Shown piece after piece: positions 18,776 to 63,238 of a stretch of 64,000 nucleotides of DNA; position 1 is the stretch's first letter, and the number at the start of each line of letters is the position of its first letter. The position numbers and the translations under genes were made by a program. The stretch covers positions 8,577 to 72,576 of the forward strand of contig CAYJDM010000004.1 of NCBI GenBank assembly GCA_964368945.1. The letters are read 5' to 3'. The DNA comes from an uncultured Candidatus Saccharibacteria bacterium (GTDB lineage: Bacteria > Patescibacteriota > Minisyncoccia > Phycocordibacterales > CAIZLB01). The notes below the pieces were generated by a model. That model was not told the DNA's origin, made no database searches, and saw only the letters and a list, made by a program, of their open reading frames with translations.

Positions 18776-18877
18776 TTATGGCCTTAATTATAACAGCAAA
18801 GTGTGGATTTTTACGCTCAGAACGGTACTTTTTCATATATATTTTGGGGATAAACCAGGATATTTTTTTGCTATAAT

Positions 18878-19435: not shown

Positions 19436-19477
19436 TATAGATAGCGATCAGCTTAATGCCACGTTTTCGGAGCAGAC

Positions 19478-20008: not shown

Positions 20009-20068
20009 GATTATGTTGATATTAGAATTTCTTAAAAACCGTTAGTAAAAAACATGTCAGTTTGGATA

Positions 20069-20425
20069 TCATCGTAGCGCGAAGTTGGAACCTATCTTAG
20101 CATCAGAAAAAATACGATTACTGCCATTACAACCTGAATCGCAATACCAAAAAAATATCCTCTTTAGCCCGGTCACGGGAACAGCTGACAATGCAATGAA
20201 GACATCAGAAACCCCTGACGAGTCGCCGGTAGCCCTGTCGCCATGCGTTTTTGGATCGAAAAGATAGACGACTGACGAGAGCGCGAAAATGCCGATCGCG
20301 CCGAGGATGACGGCGGAGAGGCCGTTCGCATCTAGCCCGTTGGACAGCCAGGCAACAGCGAACGAGATCACTGCCGCGGTTGCAAACAGGACAAGAAGCG
20401 AAAAAGACTTTGATTTGTAGTACAT
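20069..20425 (-). CDS. hypothetical small membrane protein
   Basis: Two predicted TM helices in the N-terminal half. Confidence 0.35.
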   Translation of the reverse strand: MYYKSKSFSLLVLFATAAVISFAVAWLSNGLDANGLSAVILGAIGIFALSSVVYLFDPKTHGDRATGDSSGVSDVFIALSAVPVTGLKRIFFWYCDSGCNGSNRIFSDAKIGSNFALR

Positions 20426-20649
20426 GATTTTATGCTATCAGCCTTTATGCGGAATGTGAAGTCATTACAGAGCACGTCACATTTTTATACGATTGTTAGG
20501 ACTCGGTCACCGGTTCATTCTGCTGCGCAGAATGCCCGTCGACCCCGCCTCCTCGTTGCGCTTCGCCGTTAGGGGTAATGCAACAATTGTGACAGGTGGC
20601 GGCTCACTGCGCAACTTCGTCCGGCTTTCTCGTATCCTATTCCCTGGTC

Positions 20650-20699
20650 AGGAAAATCAAAAGACCCGGCCTGACGGCTGCGGGTCTTTTGATTTTCCT
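20650..20699. terminator. bidirectional intrinsic terminator-like palindrome (AGGAAAATCAAAAGACCCG ... CGGGTCTTTTGATTTTCCT)
   Basis: 19-bp perfect inverted repeat with a 12-nt loop, flanked by A/T runs on both strands. It lies downstream of the copper operon. Confidence 0.5.
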
Positions 20700-20958
20700 G
20701 ATGCTGACTGTCGCGGTCTTGAACCTACGTGATGAGACACCGTAAGGCTTTCTTATGATCCCTTCTACTCCTTATATGAGGCGTTTCGGTCTCTAGGGTG
20801 TTTTTATAGACCAAGCAAACTAAGCGTATTTCACCCGTCTCGGTCACTGTCTCATTTTCAAAATGAAGCACTTTCGCTCCGCCTTGAGGAATATGGGTAT
20901 TCTAGTAAAAATGAGACAGAATAAGACACTTTGGAGGTAGCCAATTTTGTGTCTCGTT

Positions 20959-21393
20959 TTAAGACTGAAACTCTACTTCGAATGGATACATTCCCATTCC
21001 GCACGATCCCTTAAGTGAACCAATTTTCCCACTGCCAATATCTATATCTGTTGATCCTGATTGGGGTAGTGATTTGGTTATATCCAAACTTGGAATACGG
21101 ACTGAGGATGAGCAATCAAAAGTCCCTTTTGTATTGAATCGAATGATTGTCGGTATTCCTGCCTTAGCAATACTCTTTCGTGGTTGATACCCGCCTCTAG
21201 CGGTTATCTCAATAATCTGTTTTCCATCTACAACACTGACATTGTTTGCATTTATAACTTGCCCAGTATCACCACCGTCTCGTGTGAATATGAAAGCTCC
21301 CCCGATGAGAACTACCGCCACAATAATTGAAATAATAGTTGCTTTCATAACTGGAATTATACTAGAAATTAAACACTGGCGGTATGACCCCAA
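20959..21393 (-). CDS. cupredoxin-like copper-binding protein
   Basis: N-terminal TM helix. Cupredoxin_1-like core (IEITARGGYQPRKSIAKAGIPTIIRFNTKG...GSCGMGMYPFEVEF) with a C-terminal CxxxxM copper motif. It is the last gene of the copper operon. Confidence 0.6.
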   Translation of the reverse strand: MGSYRQCLISSIIPVMKATIISIIVAVVLIGGAFIFTRDGGDTGQVINANNVSVVDGKQIIEITARGGYQPRKSIAKAGIPTIIRFNTKGTFDCSSSVRIPSLDITKSLPQSGSTDIDIGSGKIGSLKGSCGMGMYPFEVEFQS

Positions 21394-22393
21394 TTACTAC
21401 CAGGCTATTAATAAGGTTGAAGAGCGCAAACATGATAACAATCAGTCCTGCTGTCTTGAAGAAGATTCCTGCCTTTGAACTTTTTTGAATACTGAATGAG
21501 CTGAAGCTAATGAGAGCCAGAACTGGCAACGTACCAAGTGCGAACGCAAACATCGTTAGTCCTCCAGTGAGAAAACTTCCTGTGGTAAGTGTGTAGAGTT
21601 GCATGGATTGTGTGAAGCCACATGGCAAGAAGAATGTCGCCACACCAACAAGAAGCGGAGTAAGAGTGTGGTTGAATTTCGACACACCGTGAGCATGCTT
21701 AGCGATAAACTTCGGCATTGACGGCTGAAGTTTTTTTGCCCAATGAAAAGTATCAAGGAGATTGATACCTAGAATAAGCATGACGATGCCGATGATTAGA
21801 CTCAGGATAAATGTTGCCGAGGTGTTAAGTGTGAATGCTGATCCGATAGTACCTATTACTCCACCGAGTATAAAGAATGATGCAATACGGCCACCATGGA
21901 ACATGAGTTGAGGTTTTATCTTGTCACCTTCTTTCGCAAACGTAGCAGACATCGAGAGAACCAATCCACCGACAACTGCCATACAGGTTGAGAGTGAAGC
22001 AATGATACCTATCACGAATGCTGTGCCATAGGTTACATTTCCAGCACTCACAAGATTTACTATTCCCATTTTCTGTAGCACCACAAAGAGTACTGCAAAG
22101 CCGAGAGCAATCGGGACCGCAATCCTGAAGTCTCCCCATTTGGCATTATGCTGTTGTTTTTCAACTGAAACACTATAGCCATGGGATTTTAAAGGAATAG
22201 TAAGTTCTAGAGCGATCTGTTCCAGTGTCTTATCACCAAAATCACCAATAACTTCTACTGAATGATTCTTGAGACTCGATTTGACATGGGTGATATTTGG
22301 CAGATCACTAAGCTCGCTTTCTGTCATGAGCACACAAGCGTTGCAGTGCATACCGTGTACATGAAAGGTATATTTTTGTGTTTGTGTAGTCAT
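21362..22393 (-). CDS. HMA-domain fused to a CcdA/DsbD_2-like multi-pass membrane protein
   Basis: N-terminal heavy-metal-associated motif GMHCNAC. A polytopic membrane domain follows with conserved Cys in two helices (LSTCMAVVGG and FFLPCGFTQS). Confidence 0.55.
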   Translation of the reverse strand: MTTQTQKYTFHVHGMHCNACVLMTESELSDLPNITHVKSSLKNHSVEVIGDFGDKTLEQIALELTIPLKSHGYSVSVEKQQHNAKWGDFRIAVPIALGFAVLFVVLQKMGIVNLVSAGNVTYGTAFVIGIIASLSTCMAVVGGLVLSMSATFAKEGDKIKPQLMFHGGRIASFFILGGVIGTIGSAFTLNTSATFILSLIIGIVMLILGINLLDTFHWAKKLQPSMPKFIAKHAHGVSKFNHTLTPLLVGVATFFLPCGFTQSMQLYTLTTGSFLTGGLTMFAFALGTLPVLALISFSSFSIQKSSKAGIFFKTAGLIVIMFALFNLINSLVVIGVIPPVFNF

Positions 22394-22398
22394 GATAA

Positions 22399-24678
22399 TT
22401 ATAATTTTTTAGCTTTAATGCGAAGCGAGTTCGATACGACCGATACAGACGACATCGCCATAGCAAATCCCGCAAAGATTGGGTTGAGTAGCCAACCAAA
22501 AATCGGATAAAATAAACCAGCAGCAAGCGGAATTCCAACAATATTGTAGATAAATGCCCAGAAGAGGTTCTGCTTAATTCCTCTCATAGTGATTCGTGAC
22601 AACTTGATAGCTTTTACCAGTTTAGAGATATCACCATGAAGCAGTGTTATACCCGCAGATTCGATAGCGACATCTGTTCCTGTACCCATAGCAATACCAA
22701 CATTGGCTTGTGCGAGAGCGGGAGCGTCGTTTACTCCATCTCCTGCCATGGCCACTATTCTTCCCTGATCCTGAAGTGCTTTGACTTTATTCATCTTGTC
22801 TTCGGGCAATACATGAGCCATTACTTCGTCAATACCAACTTGAGAGGCGATGTATTTTGCGGTCTTCTCATCATCACCTGTAAGCATAATCACTTTTATA
22901 CCCAATTTATGGAGGCTTGCGATAGCATCTTTTGATTCTTTCTTCACTTCATCAGCTACCATAACAAAACCAAGAAACGTATCTTTGGTACTCATAAGCA
23001 CTGGAGTTTTCCCTTGAGCTGTGTATTTTTCTAACTGCTTTTGATCAAAAGAAACCCCAAGCACTTCAATCAATTTTGCATTACCGACAAAATATTCTTT
23101 TCCTTCAATTACCCCCTTGAGACCCTTTCCTTGAATGATTGAAAAATCCGACGCTGTTTTTAACGATATATTTTTACTTTTTGCATACTGCGTAATAGCG
23201 TGCGCGATTGGATGCTCTGATTTATTTTCAAGGGAAGCAATTATACCTATGAGAGATTCGTCACTTAAATCCGATTTATTGTGTATATCAACTACAGACG
23301 GCTTGCCGATAGTAATGGTTCCTGTTTTATCTACCACTACAGTATCTGCCTTGTGCAAATGTTCTAGGGAAGCTGCGTCTTTGATGAGGATTCCATTTCG
23401 TGCCCCTTTACCTACACCAACAATGATTGCTGTGGGAGTTGCAAGACCGAGTGCACATGGACAAGCGATAACAAGAACACTTACAAACGATAGAATGCCT
23501 AGTGATAATGCTTGCGAGAATCCAATAAATTGTGAACCAACTGAAAGCCAGACAACAAGAGAAACAAAAGCAATGATAAGCACTATTGGCACAAATATAC
23601 CCGACACTCTATCTGCAAGGGCTTCTATCGGAGCCTTACTGCCTTGTGCATCTTCAACCATTTTAATAATTTGGGATAGGAGTGTTTCTTTGCCGACCTT
23701 TTTGGCTTCGAATACAAATGAACCGTTGGTATTAATTGTTCCTGCGACGACAGAATCACCAACATTTTTTTCGACAGGAATTGGCTCGCCAGTAATCATT
23801 GATTCGTCAATAAATGAACCACCTTCAATAATCGAGCCATCAACAGGTATTTTACTGCCGGGCTTTATCACGATTTTATCACCGTGCACCACTTCATCGA
23901 TTTTCACCTCCACTTCGTTTCCCTTTCGAATAACAAGAGCTGTCTTTGACTGAAGATTCAATAATTTTTCAATAGCATCACCTGTCTTTTTCTTTGATCG
24001 TGCTTCAAGATATTTACCGAGAGTTATAAAACCAATGACGACAATGGTGACATCAAAATATGTATACTCGGGAACACGTAGTAGCACTCCAAGTGATGGT
24101 GAAAGTGTAACCAAAATACTGTAGGTATACGCAACAAGCGTGCCGAGACCAATAAGTGTATCCATATTAGCGACTCTGTGCTTAATGAATCTTGTCACTC
24201 CAAGCAGATATGGTTTACCTACCCAGAACAATGCCACAGTTGCCAAGACCATAGAAATGGTATTAAAAAGAGCCATCGGAATCGGTAGATTCGGCATCCA
24301 TGTAGTTGTCCGAGCAAGAATGTCCCACATCATAAGAACAAACACCACCAGTGTAATGGGTATGATAAACTCAGTTTTATTTTTGAGTTCATCAAGTTCA
24401 TTTTCTTTGGGGGCTGTATGATTATGTTCAGCATTAACCTGATTTTCTCCCATGACAAAGGAGTATCCTAATTCGCTTATTTCCTTATTCATTACATCAA
24501 TTGAGACACGGCTTTCGTCATAATCAATTTTTGCCTTTTCATTTCCATAATTTACAGAAACAGAATTAATATATGGCACACTCGAAAGTTTTTTGGTGAT
24601 AATCGAAGCACAGCTGGCACAATGCATTCCTTTCACTTTTAAGATTTGTGTAGTCATGATGATTATATGTTGTACCAA
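22399..24678 (-). CDS. copA: copper-translocating P1B-type ATPase
   Basis: N-terminal HMA motif GMHCASCAS, membrane CPC motif ([11 protein letters not shown]), phosphorylation site DKTGTIT, and hinge [10 protein letters not shown]. Confidence 0.9.
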
Positions 24679-25223
24679 GTAGTTCTAAGACCCTTGAGTG
24701 TCTGTAAGCCATTTGAAAGAAATGCTTCGACAGCATCCGCATTATTCAAAACTTCAGCTCGACTTGATTTTGATCTTGTCTCTTTTGTCATAACTATCCC
24801 TGCTTCATGGTGAGCAATAATGGCATTAAGAAAACGTAGATCAAATGTATCGCCCGCAGGTCCAAGATTTGCTACGATTGGATCTCTCACTGTTTTAGTG
24901 TCTCCATACCAGTCTTTCTTCCAAGCATATAGTTCAGCAATAGTTTTTGGTTCATCATTTAGGATATTTTGTGAGAGAGTCTTCATCTCAGGACGAACAG
25001 TATTTTTTCCGAGTTGCTCAGCCAAAAGCATCGCTCCACGATGATGAGATATCATCGCATTTACATATCGCAGATCAAAAGTCCTATCAGCCTGACCGAG
25101 GCTCATCGTATTTTTCTCATACATAGAAACTTTGTATTCGGGAGTGAGGTAATATCCAAAGCTAACACCTAACACCGCACCAACTACCATAAGACCGAAT
25201 GCTAAATATATTGATATTTTCAT
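24663..25223 (-). CDS. DUF305 family protein (copper-resistance associated)
   Basis: Signal/TM N-terminus. Two DUF305 repeats ([16 protein letters not shown] and [16 protein letters not shown]). Confidence 0.65.
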
Positions 25224-25224
25224 T

Positions 25225-25500
25225 TTATTTTCTTTTTAGACGATATACTTTGATAATTTCTTCTGTAGCTTTGGCTGCTTTTCCTTCCTTGATCTGGTTT
25301 ACAAGACAATGACCAAGGTGATGCTCAAGAAGTTTGTCTTCCACATTAGAAATGCCCTGCTTTACCGCAGAGGCTTGAGTAATAACATCAATGCAATACG
25401 CACCTTTTTCAATCATATCTTGAAGACCCCGAACCTGACCCTCGATTATCTTAAGACGCCGAACTAATTTTTCTTTATCTGTTTTCATACTACTCATCAT
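25225..25500 (-). CDS. csoR: CsoR/RcnR-family copper-sensing transcriptional repressor
   Basis: LKIIEGQVRGLQDMIEKGAYCIDVITQ...HHLGHC: DUF156 fold with the C-H-C metal ligands. Confidence 0.75.
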   Translation of the reverse strand: MMSSMKTDKEKLVRRLKIIEGQVRGLQDMIEKGAYCIDVITQASAVKQGISNVEDKLLEHHLGHCLVNQIKEGKAAKATEEIIKVYRLKRK

Positions 25501-25518
25501 ATACCCCCTAGGGGGTAT
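25501..25518. promoter_or_regulatory. CsoR operator-like perfect palindrome ATACCCCCTAGGGGGTAT
   Basis: 18-bp perfect GC-rich inverted repeat of the TACCC-N-GGGTA type. It lies between a TATAAT -10 (rc of 25533-25538) and the csoR start codon. Confidence 0.5.
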
Positions 25519-25564
25519 ATGTCAACAACACAATTATACCCAGATTCCCATTTCAATAATCTGA

Positions 25565-26803
25565 CTATTTCTTAATTCTTTTAGACGGTGGCACATAATC
25601 CGTCTCCAGATACCAATATCTGTACCTCTTCGGTCTGTCTGGATAATCAAAGAATCGAGTTTCTGGAGTACTGTTCTGTACTCGCTTGAGGCTTGGACCA
25701 TCAACCTTTCCTTTCTTGATATATTCAGCTTCTATCTTCTTCCATCGCTCCACTGGATACCCGTCCTCGTCGTCAAACCACATGCTGAAATTCTGACGCT
25801 CGTGTTCTGGAAAGTAATTGATATGTCCCATACCCCACATCGGAGCGGATATCTCAAAACTCTTCGCTGTCTTTCCGCCGACACGGATCGGTTCCATATG
25901 CTTTTCCTCCATAAAATCATCGATGCCGACACATGACATGTCCAAGAGATACTCACGAGAGAATACCGTCCAGAGATCATGGTTTCTTGGATTAGGCAGA
26001 CCTCGTTCTACGTTCTTGATTGCCTTAGCATCTGGATACTTCGCAGACCACAATATACGATTCCTATCATCAAGAAGTGGGTACGCCTTGAATATGCCAG
26101 ACATCTCGTCATGCTTGATTGCCTTATATAGACGAATCAGTATTGACCTTGGATCAAGTAAGTTTCCCAGAACGACGATGTTGGTTGTCTCATCCCCGAT
26201 GGAGAGAAGCTCTCCCATGAACCACTCGTAAAGCAGGTCAACCTTAGCTTGATCGGTAAACGAGGTTACGTCTTCGATGTCGTCACAGATAATGAGGTCG
26301 GGTCGGTGGTCACGATATTTGAGCCCTCGGATATTTTGATTTGCCCCGATACACATGATCTTCGCTCCGTACTTTGGAATCTCAATCGTGTACGCACCCC
26401 AGTCTTCCTTGGTCGCTTGGAACGGACCAAGATCGCTCTTGAGCAGTTCATTTTCTTCTAGCTCCTGCTTGATGTTGTCGAAGTGGGATTGGGACTGGAC
26501 TCTGGTTTTAGAAACGATCAACACGAACTTCTTCTGGTGCTTTCCGAGGATACTCCACAGAGCATTAGAAAGGTTCAGGATGGTTGATTTTCCTGAACCT
26601 CTAAATGCCATGAACACGTTAAGCTTGTGTTGGTATGACTCGGTAATGCGGAACATCTCCTTATGGAACCAAGCGAACTCATACTTCAAATGCCTCCGAA
26701 GATAGATACTGCAAAATGCCTCGTGATTTTGATACACGAGTGCGGTTCGCACGGCGGTATCATTGATGACCGCCTGTATTATTTCTGGAGATAGTTTTTT
26801 CAT
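25565..26803 (-). CDS. phage terminase large subunit
   Basis: Walker A in the ATPase domain (AFRGSGKST) and a C-terminal RNaseH-like nuclease region. The overall ~410-aa architecture fits a terminase large subunit. Confidence 0.75.
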   Translation of the reverse strand: MKKLSPEIIQAVINDTAVRTALVYQNHEAFCSIYLRRHLKYEFAWFHKEMFRITESYQHKLNVFMAFRGSGKSTILNLSNALWSILGKHQKKFVLIVSKTRVQSQSHFDNIKQELEENELLKSDLGPFQATKEDWGAYTIEIPKYGAKIMCIGANQNIRGLKYRDHRPDLIICDDIEDVTSFTDQAKVDLLYEWFMGELLSIGDETTNIVVLGNLLDPRSILIRLYKAIKHDEMSGIFKAYPLLDDRNRILWSAKYPDAKAIKNVERGLPNPRNHDLWTVFSREYLLDMSCVGIDDFMEEKHMEPIRVGGKTAKSFEISAPMWGMGHINYFPEHERQNFSMWFDDEDGYPVERWKKIEAEYIKKGKVDGPSLKRVQNSTPETRFFDYPDRPKRYRYWYLETDYVPPSKRIKK

Positions 26804-27186
26804 TTGAAAAGTTTGAGTGCGTCCTTGAGAATTTCCTTTTGTTGAGCATTCAGCTCAGTTTTCTTTTGCACCTTTCGTATCAGGTCTCTCTTGTCCTCAG
26901 ACATGAAGCGATGGTGGTTGTTCTTGAGCCACAGAGCAATCGCCTGATATTTCTTCTCTCTGATGAGAGCAATGAGATGAGCTTCGGACATATCGTTTAT
27001 GTTCTCCACGCCATCGACCTTGGCGTTATCAACGTTTGCCTTGAAGTCTTCGTCTTCATTGCACCAGCGGTAGAACGTGGCTCGTGAGATTCCACCTTTC
27101 TTGCATGCCACTTCCACAATCGGAACGGTACGCAGATGCTCCAGCAGAACTTCCTTCTGCTTTTTTATCTTCAGATCTACTGCCAT
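26800..27186 (-). CDS. phage terminase small subunit-like HTH protein
   Basis: 128 aa with HTH (GGISRATFYRWCNED). It overlaps and lies immediately upstream of the large-subunit gene. Confidence 0.5.
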   Translation of the reverse strand: MAVDLKIKKQKEVLLEHLRTVPIVEVACKKGGISRATFYRWCNEDEDFKANVDNAKVDGVENINDMSEAHLIALIREKKYQAIALWLKNNHHRFMSEDKRDLIRKVQKKTELNAQQKEILKDALKLFK

Positions 27187-27188
27187 GA

Positions 27189-28511
27189 CTAGCTTATTTT
27201 CTTACGCTTCTTGCCAGTCTCTTTCTCCCAGCGATTCATGATGACTTCTGCATAGACGTGAGACTTTTCCATGATGAAGCAACGACGACCCATCTTCACT
27301 GATGCAATGAGTGTGCTTCCACTTCCTCCAAATGGTTCGAGGATGAGGTCGTCTCTCTTTGTAAGGACTTTGAGATACGGTACGAGGAGTTCGATCGGCT
27401 TCGTACCGAATATAATCTCCTGTCCAGAAGACTTCTTGTCTGCGGCGGTATGCGAGATGAAGTCCGTGGGACAAATTTTCTTTCCTTTCTCGTATGGCTC
27501 GAAGTGCGGATGTCCTGACGTTGCGAAGATGGCATTCTCGTACTCGTTTTGAAACAATCCTTCTTCTGGTTCGAGGTTTAGATCTACTTCTCCCGAAGTA
27601 CCGACAAGGGCGATATCAGTCTTGTTGAAGAACTTGTTTGAAGCTGAGAATCCCTGCATCCGATTTGGCACATGCCACGTTATCGTATTGCGATATTTCC
27701 AGTGAACTTCGAGTGCGTTCCAGATGGTGCGAAGGTTCTTCGGATTCTCGAAGATGATTATCGAGAAGTCAGGTTTTTGCACCTTAGCGACGTTTGCCAT
27801 CCAGAGATCTGAAAAGTTCTCAGGCAACACATCTGTTTCCAGATAGCGACGATTCTTCTTTGAACCGAATCCGACAGTTGGACCATCCTTTCCTCGACCT
27901 TTACCTTTGAGATAATCGAGGATATACGGAGGGTCAGTTAGCACCATGTCCGCTTTGTTTTCTCCCATGAGTTTGAGCATATCTGCCTCGACGGTCGAGT
28001 CACCAATCATCAATCGTGAGCCGTCGAGATCGTATACTTCGCCTTTCTTTGCATCGACTGTGATATCAAGCTTTTCGAGTTCCTTTTGGAGATCAAACTG
28101 TTCCTCGTTCTTTTCCATTGGGAAGATATCGTCAATATCCTCAGACGTGAATCCGATATCGAGGAGCATCGAGCTGTCGAACTCGGCGAGCATATCAAGA
28201 TCAAACTCTCCTTGGTTTCGATTGAGTCTGAGATTGAGTTCTGCTTCTTTTTCTGGTGTGAGATTCACGAACACGACTGGCATATTCTTGTATCCCAACT
28301 CTTTGCACGCTTCCACACGGAAATGACCTCCAACGATGACGTTCATTCTTTCCTCGTGCGTGTTCACGATTATCGGATCGACATTGCCGAACCGATTGAT
28401 ACTTTCCTTGAGCTGTTTCTTTTGCTCGTCCGTCCACTTGCGTGGGTTCTTGTCGTTTGCGACGAGACTGTCGATTGAGACGTACTCAATCTTTAGATTT
28501 TCTTTGTTCAT
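27189..28511 (-). CDS. ParB-like nuclease domain fused to DNA (N6-adenine/N4-cytosine) methyltransferase
   Basis: N-terminal ParB/Srx motif (NPRKW...GGHFRVEA). Methyltransferase motif IV DPPY (VLTDPPYI) and motif I FGGSGST near the C-terminus. This is a typical phage arrangement next to terminases. Confidence 0.75.
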   Translation of the reverse strand: MNKENLKIEYVSIDSLVANDKNPRKWTDEQKKQLKESINRFGNVDPIIVNTHEERMNVIVGGHFRVEACKELGYKNMPVVFVNLTPEKEAELNLRLNRNQGEFDLDMLAEFDSSMLLDIGFTSEDIDDIFPMEKNEEQFDLQKELEKLDITVDAKKGEVYDLDGSRLMIGDSTVEADMLKLMGENKADMVLTDPPYILDYLKGKGRGKDGPTVGFGSKKNRRYLETDVLPENFSDLWMANVAKVQKPDFSIIIFENPKNLRTIWNALEVHWKYRNTITWHVPNRMQGFSASNKFFNKTDIALVGTSGEVDLNLEPEEGLFQNEYENAIFATSGHPHFEPYEKGKKICPTDFISHTAADKKSSGQEIIFGTKPIELLVPYLKVLTKRDDLILEPFGGSGSTLIASVKMGRRCFIMEKSHVYAEVIMNRWEKETGKKRKKIS

Positions 28512-28932
28512 ATACTTTCTAGATAGTTAGTGAGTAATCTAGAAGCAACAAAAAACCGCCTACGATATCAAAGTTATCTTTAATACCAAAGGCGGGTTCT
28601 CGTTTCTATATTTATCGACCTGAACAATAGAAAGACCTTTAACCTTTGGGGGTTAAAAATATTTCTATTGCCAGAATGGTCACCTTCGCCAGTCCACTAT
28701 CATGAGATAGTTTCTGAAGTTTCTTCCATTTAAGCTACGTTGCATAGAACTTTAACTAAGGATGCTTGCATTAATCCATCTTAGCCGTTTTTAGATATGG
28801 GTGATGTATTGGTGCTTCTGTGAGTATTTTAGCACAAAACTCAATACAGCAAGTGTCTTTTTTGAGACAAATACGTGTCACTTTCAAAAACCGCTATGTT
28901 TCAAAGTGATTTAGGTAATTGACTGTTGATAA

Positions 28933-29802
28933 CTATTTCCAAAAAGCGAACCTCTTGAAGAATCCGAACACTTTCTGCACGAATGTCTCTTTTAGCGGTT
29001 CAGGTGTCTTTACCTCCTCAACTACAGGAGCTTCGACTACTGAAGTCGTGGTAGATTCCACTTTTACTTCTGGCTTCGACTCTATCTTCTTGATTGTCTC
29101 AGTTTTCTTTTGAACGGCGGTAGTAGGCACAATCTTTGGAGCTACTGTCTCAGTTGCTTGTGAGAAAAATTCAGGATGTTTTACTCTATAGATATCCTCA
29201 ATCTTTTTGTAGTTCTCAGGATTCATCGACTTAAGGAGATTCAGTTGGGCAGACCATTCGTCGGGAGGTAGTGTCTCAAGCCAGTCGTATAAATCGTAGA
29301 TGGTAGCTGATGACTTTGGAATCTCAGTCGCTCTTTCGTACTCGGCAGTCTGCATGTCGTATTCGAGCTGTTTGATTTTCAGTTTCAGCTCGGCAATCTC
29401 TGCTTCTTTTGCATTAGTGTCTGACTGAGATTGATACGATGACTTCTGTGATTCGAGTTCGCTTATCTGCGATGCGTATTTTGCGGTTATCTCGGCAACC
29501 TTTGCGTCTGCTTGGTTTGAGATTCCACTTTGTGCGTAGAGACCACGGATGTAGTTTATCTCCGCATCTCGCTCTGACTTTAATTCAGATATTCGGGCGT
29601 TGATAGTACTGATTGAAGCCGATGGATTATTCGACAGTTGCGACTCAAGACTTCTTAATCGATATTCTAAAGCCGACAGTGCTTCCTTTTGTTTTATCCC
29701 AACATCAGCTGGGAGATAATTGTAATCTGTTGCGTGTGCGATTGATGCTTGGAATACAAAGATTCCTAGCACGAACACACATGTTCGTAATTTATTTTTC
29801 AT
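28933..29802 (-). CDS. secreted coiled-coil protein (hypothetical)
   Basis: Signal peptide followed by a long heptad-rich region and a Pro/Glu/Lys-rich tail. Confidence 0.4.
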   Translation of the reverse strand: MKNKLRTCVFVLGIFVFQASIAHATDYNYLPADVGIKQKEALSALEYRLRSLESQLSNNPSASISTINARISELKSERDAEINYIRGLYAQSGISNQADAKVAEITAKYASQISELESQKSSYQSQSDTNAKEAEIAELKLKIKQLEYDMQTAEYERATEIPKSSATIYDLYDWLETLPPDEWSAQLNLLKSMNPENYKKIEDIYRVKHPEFFSQATETVAPKIVPTTAVQKKTETIKKIESKPEVKVESTTTSVVEAPVVEEVKTPEPLKETFVQKVFGFFKRFAFWK

Positions 29803-30177
29803 AAGCCACTGTAGCGGTTTTAGCCTATTAATTTAATAATAGACGAAGAATCTTGAGTCGTGAGACAGAAGACTCCTCGCCATTGTGATCCAACCTTTCG
29901 GTCAGACCCATATACCCTTTCGGGTACACGACCGCTACAGTGACTCTGACGAGGAGTCTTCTATACTGTAGCGGTTTTATATTCCGACCATATCCTAAGG
30001 AAACTAAGCGTTTTCTAAGGGGTTAGGTCTTTGTTGTATGTGTACATGATAGCAAAAATCGAGCTATCTATCTAGACTCTAGCTTAGATTCGGAGCCTTG
30101 CGAAGCATCGGTTACCAACAGCTGAATTTGAAGACTATGCGGTATCTAAAAGGGCTCAATTTTAGTAAAATAGAAAT

Positions 30178-30777
30178 ATGGGAGACTGCTTAAGTACAAT
30201 GGATATAATCACAATAGTAACCTCAATTGCAACACTTATTGCACTTGGCTTTACTGTATACCAAGCTCGACTCACAAGAGATACTCTTTTAGAAACCAAA
30301 AAGAGTATTGATCAAGAAAAAGTTAACCGTCAGATATCTCTACTTCCAAAATTTGAATACATTATCGAGGTGGATGTCGAACTAATGCATTGGCAAGAGG
30401 AATTGGAAACAAGAAGTAAGAAACTTAAGGAAGCATTCGCAAGAAAGGATTCTAAAATCTTGGAAGATCTATCTAAAACAAAGACGAAAAATCCAAGCGA
30501 CTTGAGACTTTCAAGATATCAATATGAGAAGATGCCCGATTGGCTTTCTCAGCTATGGCTTTCAGGAGCACAATACTATTACGACGCTATGGCATCAATG
30601 CAATTTTTGTATAAGGATGATAAAGGAGAATTCGGTCTAGCGGAAATGCTCTATCAGAGATGTGACGGCAGTGCATACTCAATAAAAGAATTGCGCGCTT
30701 ATATTTCTGGAATGATACCTGAAGTTATTCTTGAGACTCCTGCCAGTACAAGAAATAGTGAGTTTTTTAGAGACTAA
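30178..30777 (+). CDS. hypothetical membrane-anchored protein (island cargo)
   Basis: N-terminal TM helix (IITIVTSIATLIALGFTV). No known motif. Confidence 0.4.
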   Translation: MGDCLSTMDIITIVTSIATLIALGFTVYQARLTRDTLLETKKSIDQEKVNRQISLLPKFEYIIEVDVELMHWQEELETRSKKLKEAFARKDSKILEDLSKTKTKNPSDLRLSRYQYEKMPDWLSQLWLSGAQYYYDAMASMQFLYKDDKGEFGLAEMLYQRCDGSAYSIKELRAYISGMIPEVILETPASTRNSEFFRD

Positions 30778-30867
30778 ACAACAGAGTTTAGAGGAGAAAA
30801 GTTACCAACTTAATGGGTCTAGGACGCTCTAGACTCCTAGAGCGATCAGCGTCATCAATGTAGTTGT

Positions 30868-32187
30868 ATGAAAATACAAAAACCGCTACAAGTGACTCCT
30901 GACGAGGTCGTACCAATTAAGTACTGTCTCTATGCTCGCAAATCAACGGAGCAAGAAGATAAGCAAGCATTATCAATAGAATCGCAGGTTAAAGAGATGA
31001 TAAGTCTCGCCGAGCGAGAGGGTTTAAAAATAGTCGAAATCAAGCGTGAATCGCACTCCTCTAAGGAGGTTGGGCAAAGACCGGTATATAACGAGCTGAT
31101 CAATGAAATCAGGCAAGGTAAATTCAACGGTATCCTGACATGGGCACCTGATCGCCTATCGAGAAATGCTGGTGATCTTGGATCGGTCGTAGACCTGATG
31201 GATCAGAAGCTTCTACACGAAATTCGGACTTATGGACAGAAGTTCACGAACAATCCAAATGAGAAGTTCTTGCTCATGATTCTCGGATCACAAGCAAAGC
31301 TTGAGAACGACAACAAGATGGTAAACGTGAAGCGAGGACTTCGAGCGAGATGTGAGATGGGCTTATGGCCATCAGTGCCTCCAACCGGATATCTGAGCCA
31401 TTCAGACAGGAACAAGAAGTGTGAGGTGGTGTTGGACGAACAAAGGAGTCATGTGATAAAGCTGATGTTTGAGAAGGTAGCCTATGATGGTTGGTCGGGA
31501 CGAAAGCTATTCAAATGGTTGGCTGAGGATATACGATTCAAGACCAAACACGGAAAGCCCCTGACACTGAGTAATGTGTATATCATTCTCAAAAGCACCT
31601 TCTACTACGGTGAATTTGAATATCCAAAAGAAAGCGGACAATGGTATGTCGGAAAGCACGAGCCGATAATCACCAAAGATTTATATAACCAAGTGCAAGA
31701 CAAGATAAATAATGATCATCTGACGCGGACTCAAGATAAAGAGTTCGCTTTTACCAAGATGATAACCTGCGGACTCTGTGGATCAGGCATAACCGCTGAC
31801 GAGAAATTCAAGAAGCTCAAAGATGGTACGACAAATCGCTACGTCTACTATGGATGCACGAAGTTTAAAGACAAGGACTGCCCTTGCGGGTACATCCGAG
31901 AGGAAGATCTAATTGAGCAACTAGCAATGGTTCTAGATACAATTTCGCTGGACGAGATCGGAATGAAAGACAGGATCAAGACTGAGATTGAATCACATAA
32001 TGAATTCCAAGAATCAGTACTGGGGCGAGAGGTCAAAGAGAAAGTGAAGATAAAGGAAGTAGACATCAGAAACTACGCAAAACACATACTAAGAAAAAGA
32101 CCGCTGTACGAAAAACGAGAACTATTAAGTCATCTGAGAAGCAAGTTGGTACTGAAAGAAAAGATACTCAGTGTGATCAAGAATTAA
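30868..32187 (+). CDS. large serine recombinase (resolvase/invertase-type catalytic domain plus recombinase domain and zinc ribbon)
   Basis: Catalytic YARKSTEQED serine motif near the N-terminus, a recombinase domain, and Cys-rich CGLCGS...YYGCTKFKDKDCPCGY. Confidence 0.8.
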   Translation: MKIQKPLQVTPDEVVPIKYCLYARKSTEQEDKQALSIESQVKEMISLAEREGLKIVEIKRESHSSKEVGQRPVYNELINEIRQGKFNGILTWAPDRLSRNAGDLGSVVDLMDQKLLHEIRTYGQKFTNNPNEKFLLMILGSQAKLENDNKMVNVKRGLRARCEMGLWPSVPPTGYLSHSDRNKKCEVVLDEQRSHVIKLMFEKVAYDGWSGRKLFKWLAEDIRFKTKHGKPLTLSNVYIILKSTFYYGEFEYPKESGQWYVGKHEPIITKDLYNQVQDKINNDHLTRTQDKEFAFTKMITCGLCGSGITADEKFKKLKDGTTNRYVYYGCTKFKDKDCPCGYIREEDLIEQLAMVLDTISLDEIGMKDRIKTEIESHNEFQESVLGREVKEKVKIKEVDIRNYAKHILRKRPLYEKRELLSHLRSKLVLKEKILSVIKN

Positions 32188-34730
32188 CGAAGCCTTCTCT
32201 GTAGACTTTCTTTGAGCTTACCAATTTCTTTCTTTGCAGCAGGCGCAATCTCAAACATCGAGACATCATTCGCCAAGAGCCATTCTATACACTCTTTTCT
32301 TCCAAGATTGATATCTCCAACATACTGTGACAATTCAATGGCAGTGTGTCTACTCAGACCGAGATTAATGAGGGATATTTGAGTCCTCTGCGAAACACCG
32401 AACTCAACCCACATGTTCAACTGTGGTACAGATTCTAGGAGTTCAGGGTGTTCGTTGCCAAGATAGTATTTGAGAATATCTATGTAACAAGAAGAATATT
32501 TTGCAAATTTGAATCTAACATACTCCTCAATATCGCTCATCGTATCTCGGATGATTTTGGAGAGCTTTCTACGTGGCTCTTTTCTGCCCCAATATGTGAT
32601 GTTGGATCTGATGATTCGTGCAAGTGGATATCCATTCATCCAGTTGATTACCAATATTGCATGGTACGGAGCAAGACCCTCATGATCACCCGAGAGAATC
32701 TTGCTTATCCTTTTAATGATCGCAACATAGTGACCTAGAGCCGCGTCTTCTGTGTCTGGTAAAACAGGAATGAGATTTTTGACATCCTTGTCATAGTTCT
32801 TGAAATACTCTAAAAGCTTTTGCTGGGCGACAGGGCTGATACCAGGGTTTCTGTAAACGATATCCTCAGGAACTTCTAAGGTTTCCTTTACCCTCGCACA
32901 CTCAGCCTCAAGCTCAGCTATGTAACTCGCTTCCAAAGGCTCTCCTTGAAGATTTTGATTTTTGAGAAACTTTGTAAAGTAGTAACTGAATGCGTATTCG
33001 AGATTGGGCTTGAACGATCCTTCTGAAGTGCCTTTTATGTAATCCAGAAGATCCTCTCGGCTTTCAGATATTTCAGCAATAGCTCTTTTTATAAAATGCT
33101 TTGTCTTTTCCCTGACAGGCTTATTATCCCATTCTTCAGGATCAATACAGACGATATTTCCTTGGAACTCTTTCTTTAAGCGACCTGCTCTACCCGCAAG
33201 GTTCCAGAAGTCAGACTCTGTCATCGGCAATCGATTACCTCTCTTTGGCTTCCTGATAAAGATAGACTTAGCAGGAAGATTCACACCCTCAAGCAGAGTT
33301 GAGGTGCAGACTAAGTATTTTATGTGACCCTCTGTATAGAGCCTCTCAATCTCTTTTCTGATAACCAACGGCATGTTGCCATAATGAAACGCAATCTTTC
33401 TCTTCAAGACCTTAGCTAGCAGATAGTCTGTATGTATCAACTTTTTGGTTAGGTCGATAAGCTCCTCTATTTCATCATCTTCAGTTTCCTGTGATTCACC
33501 AACAAGGTCAAAGAGTTTTTCTGACACATCTTCAGCGTCAGCCTGTCCGTTTACGTAAATCATGTTACCGCCATCTTCAGACCCAAGCATATGACAAAAC
33601 ATAGGGAGCTTATCTTTTTCTCCAAGAATATCCCTGGTGCTAAGCGTTCCAAGGTTTATAGAGTATGTCTTTAGGCAGAGATCAATACTCCACTGACGAG
33701 GATGTCCTGATGCTTGAGAGACCCACACAAGGTTCTGATTAACCGCAACGTACTCTGTGACGATTGTCGATTTTCTTTCAGGATTGGGTAAACCATCGAG
33801 GAGTATCTCTGGATTCTGTGAAAATGGACTACAGAACAGCATCTTAAGATCAGGTAAACGGCTGACCAGTTCCTCAATCTTTTGTTGTAGTAAAACACCT
33901 CTTCCTCCATCACCAATCTTATGAGCCTCATCAACGATAAGGAAATCAATTCGGTAGTCCTTGTTCTCGTTGAGAAACCAGTGCAATCTCTCTTGGGTGA
34001 AGATGAGAAGACTCGGCTTGCTTCCGTCTTCATCGTCAGGCAGTTGAGGTACAGAACTAAGATATACGGAGTGATTGTCGTTTTTAAAAAGCTGATCCGA
34101 AAAATCCTGCTCTACCTGATTAATCAACGCTCTTGTTGGCACAAGATATACAATATTCTTTGGATTTCCCAAATCGCTCAACTGCTCCAAAACAAAGGTA
34201 TTTAAAATAAAAGACTTTCCAGAAGATGTTGGGGCGGATGCACTTACATAACTAGAAGCGTGAGCTTTATCGTAAAAATCCTTTTGAAACTTATTAAGAT
34301 AAATTGGTTCATTAGTGTCTTTCGTGAACACGATATGTTCAACATCTCGTTGTGTATTTTCCATCTGGAATGGCAGAGGGATGTCACTCTCATAGTCAGC
34401 TGGCAAATGCTCTTTTTTGAGAGCAAGTTCTATGGCAGGTCTATTGGTGAGCTTGTGAAATATCACTGAGGATGCAACCCTCTGATTTTTAGTGGTATCA
34501 GGATGAGTAAGACAGCATTGTGCAATTCTCAAGGCGGCATCCTGACAGTCTGGATTATCTGAATGAGCCAGAGCACTCGCACACATCAAAAGATGATTCC
34601 AGTTCACAGAAGAAAATAGATCATCCTGCTGATTCAGGGCTGGAAAAAGCCTTGTTACTGAATATTTAATAACCTTCAATAGATCCCTTTGGAAACTAAC
34701 TAAATTGTATATTTTTTCAGGAAGGTTCAT
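32184..34730 (-). CDS. SF2 DExD/H helicase, candidate HamB-like defence helicase
   Basis: Motif I APTSSGKS, motif II VDEAHKI, motif VI AGRAGR. 848 aa. It overlaps the upstream partner gene by 14 nt. Confidence 0.6.
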   Translation of the reverse strand: MNLPEKIYNLVSFQRDLLKVIKYSVTRLFPALNQQDDLFSSVNWNHLLMCASALAHSDNPDCQDAALRIAQCCLTHPDTTKNQRVASSVIFHKLTNRPAIELALKKEHLPADYESDIPLPFQMENTQRDVEHIVFTKDTNEPIYLNKFQKDFYDKAHASSYVSASAPTSSGKSFILNTFVLEQLSDLGNPKNIVYLVPTRALINQVEQDFSDQLFKNDNHSVYLSSVPQLPDDEDGSKPSLLIFTQERLHWFLNENKDYRIDFLIVDEAHKIGDGGRGVLLQQKIEELVSRLPDLKMLFCSPFSQNPEILLDGLPNPERKSTIVTEYVAVNQNLVWVSQASGHPRQWSIDLCLKTYSINLGTLSTRDILGEKDKLPMFCHMLGSEDGGNMIYVNGQADAEDVSEKLFDLVGESQETEDDEIEELIDLTKKLIHTDYLLAKVLKRKIAFHYGNMPLVIRKEIERLYTEGHIKYLVCTSTLLEGVNLPAKSIFIRKPKRGNRLPMTESDFWNLAGRAGRLKKEFQGNIVCIDPEEWDNKPVREKTKHFIKRAIAEISESREDLLDYIKGTSEGSFKPNLEYAFSYYFTKFLKNQNLQGEPLEASYIAELEAECARVKETLEVPEDIVYRNPGISPVAQQKLLEYFKNYDKDVKNLIPVLPDTEDAALGHYVAIIKRISKILSGDHEGLAPYHAILVINWMNGYPLARIIRSNITYWGRKEPRRKLSKIIRDTMSDIEEYVRFKFAKYSSCYIDILKYYLGNEHPELLESVPQLNMWVEFGVSQRTQISLINLGLSRHTAIELSQYVGDINLGRKECIEWLLANDVSMFEIAPAAKKEIGKLKESLQRRLR

Positions 34731-35700
34731 AGCTTATTCCGAGTGCCTCTAAAAAATGCTTCCTAAATTCTTCTACTGAGGGAAAAGGCAGAAGAAACAC
34801 ATGGATATCAAATGTGTTCAAGTTTGTATGTTTGGAAATCTGACCTATCACGCTTGTTGACCATGCTTCAATTTCCGCTTGTATCTTCGCTTTGATTTGT
34901 TCCGTCGTTTCGCTATTTGCGACCGCAGGATACTTGTCGTAATCAAAACCTATAAGACAAACACCTTTGTAGTTAACCTGATTGTGAAGAGGGTCATCTT
35001 TATCAAGATATTTCAAAATCACTGTCCCAAGCCTTTCATCAATAACATCAAGATTGCCTCTGAGGAGCTGGAGATCTCTTTCAGCGGGAGCATCTTCTCC
35101 TCCGTCAGAGAGTAAGAACTCCTTGAGGCTTTCGAAACAACTTGAGATAGCACCACTCATATCCTTATGCAGTTTCGATTCTCCCCAATACAGAGAAAGG
35201 ATGTCCTGTCCGCTTTCGTTAGTCTCTACGGATACATGTATTCCATCAGCACCGTTTACATGAAGTTCTGAATTTGTTTTCAGGGGCATCTTACAAATCA
35301 GTTGCGGAAGTTTCAAAAATTCTTGTACAAGGATATAAAGAAGCATCTCACCACCTTCACCTGTCTTTTTTAAAGACGTAAACAATGCTTCGGCTTTCTT
35401 TACCAATTGTGTGGTCTTGGTAGAAGTATTGTGCTCACGATCATACTTTTGAGCCTCAGCAAATTCCTTTCTAGGAATAGCGTAATCGGCAACATGCCGT
35501 GCGATAAATCTTGCAAAATCTTTTGTCTGAGGTCTTCCGTTTCCATCTAAAGTAAGAAAGTAGCAGTGGGACACTGCTTTAGTATCTTTTAGATTTACAT
35601 GTGAAATAACCTCAGTTATGTAGCTGTTTATTTCCTGCTCACTGGTTCTAAGGAGTTCAGTGATAAGTTCTGCTAATGTTTTATTATCTTCTGTGTCCAT
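34717..35700 (-). CDS. candidate HamA-like (DUF1837-type) effector with PD-(D/E)xK-like residues
   Basis: 327 aa, translationally coupled to the helicase. D...ExK pattern (GADGIHVSVE...WGESKLHK). The size and gene order match Hachiman type I. Confidence 0.45.
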   Translation of the reverse strand: MDTEDNKTLAELITELLRTSEQEINSYITEVISHVNLKDTKAVSHCYFLTLDGNGRPQTKDFARFIARHVADYAIPRKEFAEAQKYDREHNTSTKTTQLVKKAEALFTSLKKTGEGGEMLLYILVQEFLKLPQLICKMPLKTNSELHVNGADGIHVSVETNESGQDILSLYWGESKLHKDMSGAISSCFESLKEFLLSDGGEDAPAERDLQLLRGNLDVIDERLGTVILKYLDKDDPLHNQVNYKGVCLIGFDYDKYPAVANSETTEQIKAKIQAEIEAWSTSVIGQISKHTNLNTFDIHVFLLPFPSVEEFRKHFLEALGISYEPS

Positions 35701-35701
35701 A

Positions 35702-35890
35702 TTAGTGGTTTATAAGCTTAAGGATGTCCGACTTCTTGTATCGACGATCCTTTCTTGTGCCAAATCGGATAGGCACTAGAATACCCTTCTTGTCCCAATT
35801 CCTTAGAGTATTTGGATGGCAGTTTAAAATCTCACAAGCTTGTTTAAGGCTTAAGATTTCGGGATATTGACTGTAATCGTTTTTAGTCAT
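35702..35890 (-). CDS. excisionase/MerR-family HTH DNA-binding protein
   Basis: 62 aa (LSLKQACEILNCHPNTLRNWDKKGILVPIRFGTRKDRRY), the Xis-type HTH_17 pattern. Confidence 0.55.
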   Translation of the reverse strand: MTKNDYSQYPEILSLKQACEILNCHPNTLRNWDKKGILVPIRFGTRKDRRYKKSDILKLINH

Positions 35891-35931
35891 ATCTTAGACT
35901 TAACATAAGTTAACAACAAAAGCAATCCTAC

Positions 35932-35981
35932 AGAAATCAAAAGACCACCCATGTAGGTGGTCTTTTGATTCTGGATACTGC
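35932..35981. terminator. palindromic hairpin AATCAAAAGACCACC-CATGT-AGGTGGTCTTTTGATT
   Basis: 15-bp perfect inverted repeat between the Xis-like gene and tRNA-Gln. It shares the AAATCAAAAGACC / GGTCTTTTGATT arms with the hairpin at 20650-20699. Confidence 0.45.
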
Positions 35982-36106
35982 ACTCAGCAGGTATGCAATT
36001 TACGGAATAGTATCGTGTGATTTGGGAAAGTTCGAGCCCATGACTGGTTCTCAAAACTCTTCCCCCTAAACAGCCATTTTAGGCGTTTAGGTAGGTCTCA
36101 CATAAC

Positions 36107-36177
36107 TGCTGGGAGATAGGGACTCGAACCCCAATTAAACGGACCAGAACCGTTTGTCCTACCATTAGACGATCTCC
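36107..36177 (-). tRNA. tRNA-Gln (anticodon CUG)
   Basis: Reverse complement folds as UGGGAGA-UC-GUCU-AAUGGUA-GGAC-A-AACGG-UUCUGGU-CCGUU-UAAU-UGGGG-UUCGAGU-CCCUA-UCUCCCA-G. U1-A72 and the CUG anticodon fit Gln. No encoded CCA. Confidence 0.85.
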
Positions 36178-36321
36178 CAATAGGCAAAAAGATAACACTT
36201 TTGGCCCTAAAAATCAACCCGGACCAGGGCCGAAGAGGCGCTCCATTCTTGCATTGCATGCCCCGAGGAGTATGCTGTTCTCGGAACACAGACCCACAAA
36301 CCCAAACCCCCGCCCTTTACA

Positions 36322-63056: not shown

Positions 63057-63164
63057 AAAACACTGAGCCTGAAAGGATCAATGTCTGCCGCAAGAATACA
63101 TACCGAAAGCGATATTGGCAAGAAACCCCGCAGGCAAACCTACGGGAAACAGCTCAAAAAAATG

Positions 63165-63238
63165 TGTCGACGGGTGGGATCGAACCACCGACCTGAGGCT
63201 TATGAGTCCTCCGCTCTAACCATCTGAGCTACGTCGAC
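63165..63238 (-). tRNA. tRNA-Met (anticodon CAU; Ile-lysidine not excluded)
   Basis: GUCGACG-UA-GCUC-AGAUGGUUA-GAGC-G-GAGGA-CUCAUAA-GCCUC-AGGUC-GGUGG-UUCGAUC-CCACC-CGUCGAC-A. Canonical arms apart from an A31-G39 mismatch. Confidence 0.75.

Follow-up and report, generated by a model that had tools for sequence, protein, structure and literature searches.

The concept closest to the locus described here is that of the tycheposons of Prochlorococcus, which carry replication modules and long partial-tRNA repeats and in a minority of cases employ large serine recombinases (Hackl et al., bioRxiv 10.1101/2020.12.28.424599). We analysed a stretch of 64,000 nucleotides (nt) from an uncultured Candidatus Saccharibacteria bacterium (contig CAYJDM010000004.1), the whole of which is referred to as the window, and in which positions 20707-36106 probably represent a ~15.4-kb site-specific integrative element at the 3' end of a tRNA-Gln gene, with two similar hairpins as the old and the replacement terminators of that gene. 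Tycheposons are likewise cargo-carrying integrative elements at tRNA genes of streamlined genomes, they accumulate in tandem, older elements and partial tRNAs being displaced outward by newcomers, their cargo is modular (metal/nutrient and defence), and some of them are satellite-like with a small terminase. In contrast to tycheposons, the hosts of the present family belong to the Candidate Phyla Radiation (CPR), a large serine recombinase is found in all members seen, no replication module is recognisable, genes for TerS- and TerL-like terminase proteins, a ParB-methylase and a LOOT RNA are conserved, and the identity at the junctions spans 5 nt and not a long partial tRNA.

Phage-inducible chromosomal islands (PICIs) and other phage satellites resemble the element in their size of ~15 kb, an integrase at one side, TerS without structural genes, defence cargo and site-specific integration. 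Unlike PICIs, which have tyrosine integrases, replication modules and known helpers, the element has a serine enzyme and an extra TerL-like gene, it has no recognisable repressor/derepression module, primase or replication origin, no helper is known and IMG/VR yielded no relative.

Large serine recombinases mobilise elements such as Tn4451/Tn5397, SCCmec and prophages of the phiC31 or A118 type, which have few identical bases at their junctions and duplicate no more of the target than the core; the insertion point of SCCmec is the very 3' end of a conserved gene. The enzyme with Resolvase, Recombinase and zinc-ribbon domains and the short core are shared with these elements, whereas the tRNA-end target, the tRNA-mimicking end and the internal position of the recombinase, with a cargo slot before the att end, are not; no partner directionality factor was identified in the element. 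Classical tRNA islands with tyrosine integrases are alike in inserting at a tRNA 3' end and leaving the tRNA intact, in having a tRNA-like far repeat and a compositional contrast, and in supplying the sequence downstream of the tRNA, but here there is no tyrosine integrase, and the element-borne "repeat" matches at 15/24 positions with a true identity of 5 nt.

Little is known of gene exchange among CPR bacteria, whose genomes are tiny and which rely on other cells. For Patescibacteria, a survey of horizontal transfer from 2025 provided bulk island predictions in which recombinases, terminases and copper are unmentioned. The islands described below are a well-delimited, previously undescribed family of tRNA-Gln-specific serine-recombinase islands in CPR bacteria, and offer a concrete element with ends defined to the base, a tRNA-Gln-end target, three cargo slots and ~99% identical copies in hosts that are only ~55% alike in housekeeping proteins.

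Empty site, target and element ends

The reference for the empty site was contig L125, which belongs to a relative and comes from sample SRR29476927. Its prfB-ftsE-ftsX genes show 83-85% nucleotide identity to those of the window (for PrfB, the relatives that carry a name are without exception Ca. Taylorbacteria, Parcubacteria or Paceibacterota and lie at 63-67% identity, and the closest relatives lie at 82-85%), and its tRNA-Gln is 100% identical to that of the window. The host of the element is thus a CPR bacterium of the Parcubacteria/Paceibacteria type. At 3 nt past the tRNA, L125 continues with a homologue of the left hairpin of the window, AAAAATCAAAAGCACC...GGTGCTTTTGATTTTT, and then with the homologue of the left flank. 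By BLAST, L125 4195-4306 corresponds to window 36219-36108 and L125 4303-4405 to window 20706-20602, with L125 4303-4306 aligning twice, at 36108-36111 and at 20703-20706, and the ~15.4 kb of 20707-36106 are present in the window and absent from L125. Because L125 carries homologues of the left hairpin and the left flank directly behind an identical tRNA-Gln, the insertion was delimited as 20707-36106, and the inserted DNA adjoins the final base of the tRNA (36107/36108). The mosaic mobile element proposed in the initial annotation of this DNA thus has its empty site in a relative; the gene at 36322, suggested for a check as the direct neighbour of tRNA-Gln in the absence of the island, is situated beyond the opposite end of the tRNA.

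On either side of the insertion stands a direct repeat of 5 nt, TGCTG (20702-20706 and 36107-36111), beyond which the sequences are unrelated; no long direct repeats or target duplication beyond this core were found at the junctions. The absence of any longer identity fits a serine recombinase. The end of the element far from the tRNA matches the 3' end of tRNA-Gln in register at 15/24 positions, including the T-loop motif GGTTCnAG and the final CAGCA, and a search for a repeat of the tRNA-Gln 3' end near 20.7 kb had indeed been suggested, where a degenerate copy is present. This far end, ...GGTTCAAGACCGCGACAG-TCAGC(A), is identical across all copies, and 11 different flanks follow beyond TCAGC(A). 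The flanks are whatever lies downstream of tRNA-Gln in many hosts, which explains the strong hairpin, taken as the resident tRNA terminator, with which 4-5 of them begin.

Copies were found at the 3' end of tRNA-Gln in L129 and L127 (both with anticodon UUG) and in L059, and in the distant Saccharibacteria variant L027, the anticodons overall being UUG or CUG. L127 is a complete 15.3-kb copy with both flanks and a cargo of a methyltransferase and a Z1 helicase, L129 has Hachiman cargo and comes from the same sample as L125, and L027 lies at tRNA-Gln with neither leader nor hairpin. In an alignment of the window with L129, L127, L059 and L006 (alignment A4), conservation begins right after CAGCA with GTYATGTGAGACCTACC... 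and extends through a 125-nt leader, a 12-nt linker and the hairpin, and homology ends directly behind the hairpin where the cargo differs (L127). The leader is conserved behind four different tRNA-Gln genes or fragments with differing tRNA bodies and is absent from L125; it is more conserved than the neighbouring genes, and its predicted fold has several stems with few compensated changes or covariations. It probably holds the P arm of the recombinase site, may be structured, and would be co-transcribed with tRNA-Gln only when the element is integrated. An earlier placement of the island's end at 120 nt from tRNA-Gln is close to the end of the right hairpin, which is 126 nt away, but not to the end of the inserted DNA, which reaches the last tRNA base, the 125-nt stretch travelling with the element.

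Tandem accretion at tRNA-Gln is seen directly in L059 and L031. In L059, a 1.07-kb islet with HxlR and SnoaL genes (1099-2283) precedes the Hachiman element, with an intact tRNA-Gln on one side and a 3' fragment of a tRNA on the other; it has no recombinase, the tRNA and the tRNA fragment are each followed by leader-like sequence, and it may be a mini-element mobilised in trans. In L031 (10620-10700), the far end runs into ...CAGCA|GTCATGTGAC..., with which another family member begins, and this joint is either part of a tandem array or attP-like. In sample SRR29476927, the L125 host (GC ~0.50-0.51) has an empty tRNA-Gln(CUG) and L129, a contig of similar GC and length, a Hachiman-type element at tRNA-Gln(UUG); if L125 and L129 are one genome, the element can choose between isoacceptor genes.

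We propose that the circular form of the element is inserted by its large serine recombinase within CAGCA, at the very 3' end of tRNA-Gln, the tRNA gene staying intact after integration. The near end of the element consists of the 125-nt leader, the 12-nt linker and the terminator-like hairpin, and the far end mimics the tRNA 3' end. The proposed attP joint is ...GGTTCAAGACCGCGACAGTCAGCA|GTTATGTGAGACCTACC... and the proposed attB joint ...GAGTCCCTATCTCCCAGCA|TCAGGAAAATCAAAAGACCC..., and the putative substrate pair of the recombinase is ...GACAGTCAGCA|GTTATGTGAG... x ...TCTCCCAGCA|TCAGGAAAATC.... In the reconstructed attB and attP, the left half-sites are alike (15/24) and clear inverted symmetry was not seen by eye.

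Several observations weigh against this reading. Neither an excised circle (attP) nor an empty site of the same strain was present in the sequences examined, the empty site coming from a relative of ~85% identity, and the sole attP-like joint is the tandem junction in L031. The att sites of large serine recombinases measure ~40-50 bp and have imperfect dyad symmetry around a central dinucleotide, and no clear symmetry of this kind was seen in the four half-sites; to our knowledge, integration at a tRNA end is unusual for large serine recombinases. Two features are not accounted for by the model: an invariant near-palindrome at the end of the leader, ATACTGC-ACTCA-GCAGGTAT (35975-35994, centred on 35983-35984), and an exchange of cargo, exact to the base, at the stop codon of the recombinase. 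Where slot 1 holds long cargo (copies L007 and L128), the sequence stops short of the tRNA-proximal end. In the assembly of ERR4405439, the left-flank contig L003 stops at 20707 and the right-flank contig L001 starts at 35983; a mixture of occupied and empty sites predicts breaks at 20706 and 36107, whereas the graph branches at 20707|20708 and 35982|35983. The island contig L028 of the same assembly, which starts at 36012, overlaps L001 by exactly k-1 = 30 nt. Since position 35982 is a T/A polymorphism among element variants, co-occurring variants are likely to cause the break on the right side, and a second element variant is suspected in ERR4405439; the break on the left side is not accounted for.

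The graph branch at exactly 35982/35983, the 30-nt overlap and the centre of the near-palindrome would all suit a tRNA-side junction at 35982/35983 with CT as its core, in which case the 125-nt stretch would be host DNA or an older scar and the element would be 20708-35982; the comparison of L005 and L006 with the window, with ~10% divergence inside 35982 and 1 mismatch in 57-58 nt outside, points the same way. We consider this quite unlikely, since the empty site lacks the 125-nt stretch, three other tRNA-Gln genes or fragments with differing tRNA bodies and upstream flanks are followed by a conserved version of it, and 35982 is merely polymorphic among variants. A right junction at this position, with a CT core and a low-specificity transposon-like insertion beside TGCTGA, had first been adopted from the contig ends and the 11 flanks, and was dropped in light of L125 and the copies at other tRNA-Gln genes; a search of JGI metagenomes for an empty site, with a bridging pattern built on this since-rejected junction, gave no match.

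Gene content, cargo slots and spread

The accessory genes listed in the initial annotation, namely a copper operon, terminase genes, a ParB-methylase, a serine recombinase, a defence pair and an excisionase-like gene, were all recovered with Pfam, PHROG and PADLOC (Table 1). Counted from the tRNA, the order is leader, right hairpin, slot 1, recombinase, slot 2, LOOT RNA, conserved operon, slot 3 and tRNA-like far end. The serine recombinase, the LOOT RNA, a 289-aa protein, the ParB-methylase and the TerS- and TerL-like proteins form the conserved set, which is accompanied by three exchangeable cargo slots. In the window, slot 1 holds a type I Hachiman system (HamA, Pfam E = 1e-60; HamB with DEAD and Helicase_C domains in Pfam); elsewhere it holds the methyltransferase and Z1 helicase of L127 or a P-type ATPase, an M23 peptidase, DsbA/DsbB and DUF305 (L128). 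Slot 2 is occupied elsewhere by an AAA_13 gene set or methylases, and slot 3 elsewhere in the family by diverged or duplicated copper sets. The excisionase-like gene does encode a helix-turn-helix protein, of 62 aa, but this gene occurs only alongside Hachiman (L005, L006, L059 and L129) and is missing from L127 with its other cargo, and is therefore counted as cargo, outside the conserved set.

The serine recombinase is the only recombinase of the element, with a homologue in every copy whose sequence covers that region, and no tyrosine recombinase (Phage_integrase domain) was found in any open reading frame (ORF) of the island or its relatives. It is convergent with the slot-1 cargo, and its stop codon overlaps the last cargo gene by 4 nt. 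The variable cargo starts exactly at this stop codon (window 32184-32187, L007 1853-1856, L027 3854-3857, L127/L129 ~6331), and the last ~6 codons of the recombinase differ between variants. An end of the element at the recombinase stop codon was considered, since the adjacent M23 peptidase has thousands of CPR homologues, and was ruled out by the further metal/redox cargo that this stretch holds, including DUF305 (L128), and by the cargo between hairpin and recombinase in L127 and L129.

The LOOT RNA lies directly 5' of the operon of the 289-aa protein, ParB-methylase, TerS and TerL, on the same strand, and it has the same position and strand in five diverged members, where it scores 47-84 bits; in the literature, as far as it was readable, no account of LOOT RNA function was found. 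The TerL-like protein matches PHROG 38 (E = 2e-33), and its N-terminus matches a TerL ATPase domain in the PDB (E = 5.5e-4); the TerS-like protein was assigned by PHROGs. A single-sequence AlphaFold2 model of the TerL-like protein was uninformative (pLDDT 38), and the 289-aa and 199-aa proteins gave no informative matches. The operon keeps its synteny and intact ORFs in members as diverged as 68% identity, and structural genes never accompany it. In L059 (7649-9939) and L126 (3350-7468), the methylase/TerS/TerL block is inverted relative to the recombinase; these members have a longer TerL of 494 aa, which in L059 has a recognisable Terminase_6C nuclease domain. Neither capsid, portal, tail nor replication genes (primase/rep) were recognised with Pfam and PHROG in the ~15-kb element.

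Proteins 100% identical to those of the element were found in public assemblies, with at least 25 blocks for the TerL-like protein, 25 for the ParB-methylase and 45 for the cupredoxin, and the genome matches are all CPR metagenome-assembled genomes (MAGs) of Ca. Paceibacterota or Ca. Saccharibacteria. At the nucleotide level, identity to the window is 98.9% over 11.5 kb for L127, 99.7% over 9.1 kb for L130 and 99.95% over 8.2 kb for L015, and the CTP synthases of two hosts are only ~55% identical. Near-identical copies beside at least 11 different flanks in Paceibacterota and Saccharibacteria MAGs demonstrate, at the level of sequence identity, a recent spread among distant CPR hosts. In the window, GC is 0.416 in 20707-36107 and 0.504 in 36108-64000 (Mann-Whitney on 1-kb windows, p = 2e-7), so the segment is AT-rich as first described with respect to its right side, but its left edge is blurred, the 18.8-20.7 kb region being low as well (0.444) and the giant gene next to it exceptionally high (0.54-0.58). 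Element GC stays at 0.40-0.42 among hosts of 0.365-0.51; the element is thus "AT-rich" only relative to the host of the window.

With capsid, portal, tail and replication genes unrecognised, no circular form found and an uninformative TerL-like model, the element could be read as a decayed, immobile prophage remnant in which the terminase, the ParB-methylase and the recombinase are leftovers and copper and Hachiman genes ordinary island cargo. This is very unlikely given that 98-100% identical copies stand at at least 11 flanks in hosts down to 55% CTP-synthase identity, that the ORFs are intact and the gene order constant down to 68% identity, never with structural genes, and that both ends are conserved to the base.

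Hairpins, recombinase and transfer

The two similar hairpins noted at 20650-20699 (left) and 35932-35981 (right) were confirmed both in their coordinates and in their identical arms, the 5' arm AAATCAAAAGACC (13 nt) and the 3' arm GGTCTTTTGATT (12 nt). Exactly 4 occurrences of the 12-mer AATCAAAAGACC were counted in the window, one in each arm of the two hairpins, and with at most one mismatch there are 6 matches against 0.42 expected, a count reached in 0/100 shuffles. RNA folding predicts -40 kcal/mol for the left hairpin (z = -9) and -32 kcal/mol for the right (z ~ -6), and both have a T-run after the stem on either strand. They had been taken to bracket the island symmetrically; however, the left one lies outside the insertion and the right one inside, 137 nt from the tRNA end and the crossover and just upstream of cargo genes on the same strand.

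The stem of the right hairpin is kept in 5 variants, in which loops are altered and stem changes compensated. The inner stems read CCCG/CGGG in the left hairpin of the window, CACC/GGTG in L125, ACCACC/GGTGGT in the right hairpin of the window and GCCACC/GGTGGC in L127, with unrelated loops. Because the stem is maintained while the sequences change, it is considered a structural element of the terminator type. The terminator of the host lineage and most element copies of the hairpin share the outer arms (A)ATCAAAAG...CTTTTGAT(T); those of L127 have diverged (AACAAAAAG...CTTTTTG). Within ~658 kb of related CPR DNA, the motif occurs only downstream of tRNA-Gln or at the tRNA-proximal end of the element, and the concern that it might be a ubiquitous terminator did not hold. 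A scan of 241 million metagenome records for the arms returned 83 contigs, L059 among them, nearly all of which are terminators unrelated in inner stems, loops and contexts. The hairpin shape is thus a recurrent terminator solution, yet too rare for two copies 15 kb apart by chance. On the simplest reading, both hairpins would descend from one family of terminators downstream of tRNA-Gln, and the near-end module of the element would derive from a tRNA-Gln locus.

We infer that the hairpins are terminators and not crossover sites, and of the earlier proposal of terminator-like boundary repeats or insertion scars the terminator-like character stands, whereas a role as recombination sites does not, the crossover sitting in TGCTG. 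The left hairpin is, as judged from L125, the putative terminator that stood behind tRNA-Gln before the insertion. Integration would part tRNA-Gln from this terminator, now 15.4 kb off behind the copper operon, and the right hairpin of the element would replace it, stopping read-through from the tRNA before the cargo genes. Look-alike hairpins at the edges of an island can therefore be an old and a replacement terminator and not recombination sites.

Hairpins that act as recombination substrates or are insertion scars, be it as integron attC-like or IS200/IS605-end-like sites or as a duplicated target, would account for one hairpin per edge with 12-13-nt identical arms and for the hairpins at the start of some 4-5 of the 11 far-end flanks. 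We judge this highly improbable, as the crossover core, though beside the left hairpin, is separated by 137 nt from the right one, a hairpin at the junction is lacking in half of the other sites (z ~ 0), the distant variant L027 has none, the stems vary with compensation as terminators would, and a hairpin right behind the tRNA is the normal look of an empty tRNA site (L125).

The recombination itself is probably performed by the large serine recombinase, because it is the only recombinase, a homologue is present in all covering copies and the 5-nt core suits this class better than a tyrosine integrase. That a tyrosine integrase, since lost or acting in trans, integrated the element while the serine recombinase serves only, for example, cargo exchange is hardly credible: the tRNA-3'-like far end and the partial tRNA repeats (L059, L125) are classic for such islands and cargo is exchanged exactly at the recombinase stop codon, but no copy has a tyrosine recombinase, the junction identity is just 5 nt and the serine recombinase is the one gene always linked to both conserved ends. 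With its 5-nt core, placed at a tRNA end that is universally conserved, this serine recombinase might also be of use as a genetic tool in CPR organisms.

With integration by the serine recombinase as the preferred reading, the TerS- and TerL-like proteins might load element DNA into the capsids of a helper phage for transfer, by analogy with phage satellites. The intact, syntenic genes without structural genes and the match of the TerL-like N-terminus to terminase ATPase domains are consistent with such packaging. It is opposed by the missing replication module, the lack of a known helper phage, the uninformative structure model and a scan of IMG/VR with the TerL-like protein, in which no related viral contig was found. 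Alternatively, free DNA might be taken up and then integrated by the recombinase. The element makes testable how DNA moves between CPR cells, by capsid hijacking or by free-DNA uptake, and what the role of the LOOT RNA is. We regard it as a tentative and rather doubtful extension that the element is the founding example of tRNA-Gln-specific, serine-recombinase, phage-satellite-like CPR islands that use their own TerS/TerL, behind a LOOT-RNA leader, to be packaged in the capsids of as yet unknown CPR phages and so carry copper resistance and defence between Paceibacteria and Saccharibacteria; if true, the orphan LOOT RNA would gain its first biological context.

Feature coordinates and neighbouring sequences

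Table 1. Coordinates of the element, its target and its left flank in the window, with LOOT RNA positions in related contigs.
Feature	Position	Strand	Description
Left flank	18776-20646		GC 0.444; three orphan genes; degenerate tRNA 3' fragment at ~20495-20510
Left hairpin	20647-20702		Putative resident tRNA-Gln terminator, outside the element; L125 homologue 3 nt past the tRNA; contained in flank contig L003
Element far end (P')	20702-20725	minus	tRNA-3'-end-like GGTTCAAGACCGCGACAGTCAGCA; final 5 nt (20702-20706) are the left core copy
Copper-resistance operon, slot 3	20959-25500	minus	CsoR, DUF305, CopA P-type ATPase, DsbD_2+HMA, cupredoxin (Pfam)
Conserved operon	25565-29802	minus	289-aa protein 28933-29802; ParB-N6/N4 DNA methylase 27189-28511; TerS-like 26800-27186; TerL-like 25565-26803
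LOOT RNA (RF03000)	29887-30029	minus	Rfam 50.9 bits, gathering score 46.4
Protein of 199 aa, slot 2	30178-30777	plus	No Pfam or PHROG match
Large serine recombinase, 439 aa	30868-32187	plus	Pfam PF00239 Resolvase, PF07508 Recombinase, PF13408 Zn_ribbon_recom; PHROG 95 integrase, E = 5e-64
Hachiman type I, slot 1	HamA 34717-35700; HamB 32184-34730	minus	PADLOC HamA1 7.8e-121, HamB1 9.6e-287
HTH_17/MerR-like protein, 62 aa (excisionase-like)	35702-35890	minus	Pfam HTH_17, E = 1.6e-10; PADLOC mad1-like
Right hairpin	35931-35973		Element-borne bidirectional terminator-like stem-loop; start of cargo slot 1
Leader (spacer), 125 nt	35983-36106	minus	Starts GTTATGTGAGACC directly past the tRNA end
Right core copy, TGCTG	36107-36111		CAGCA on the tRNA strand: last acceptor bases, discriminator and 2 nt of trailer
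tRNA-Gln(CUG)	36108-36179	minus	Integration target, gene left intact; ARAGORN and Rfam (56.3 bits)
LOOT RNA in relatives	L007 6821-6953; L026 6448-6572; L023 6791-6923; L019 7200-7343; L022 5834-5975		

The flank to the left of the insertion was inspected for traces of other integrations. In L125, the hairpin and ~150 nt stand between the tRNA 3' end and a perfect copy of 17 nt of that end (CGAGTCCCTATCTCCCA), which lies 180 nt downstream of the tRNA (the left-flank counterpart is L125 4307-4490) and is degenerate in the window. Older integrations at this tRNA are the probable origin of the left flank as a relic, and the resident left hairpin may itself be a relic of an earlier integration. 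Of the proteins encoded there, one of 185 aa resembles the product of a gene in L126 that belongs to an element-like module (46% identity over 67 aa), and no homologues were found for one of 118 aa. A flank protein of 305 aa has no relative in GTDB genomes; Rfam gave only chance microRNA matches in the left flank, on the hairpin.

Further features were noted elsewhere in the window. A giant ORF of 5304 aa (2861-18775, minus strand) encodes a C-terminal dockerin and 13 or more fibronectin type III repeats, and no domain was matched in its N-terminal half; its GC is 0.54-0.58, its GC skew is strongly negative, and the product is probably an adhesin on the surface of the episymbiont. A group I intron (61325-61648, minus strand; Rfam 53.8 bits) splits the anticodon loop of a tRNA with flanks at ~61283-61320 and ~61578-61612; this tRNA was not reported by ARAGORN. 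A third tRNA, which ARAGORN also missed, lies at 63375-63445 (minus strand; Rfam 49 bits), beside tRNA-Met at 63164-63238.

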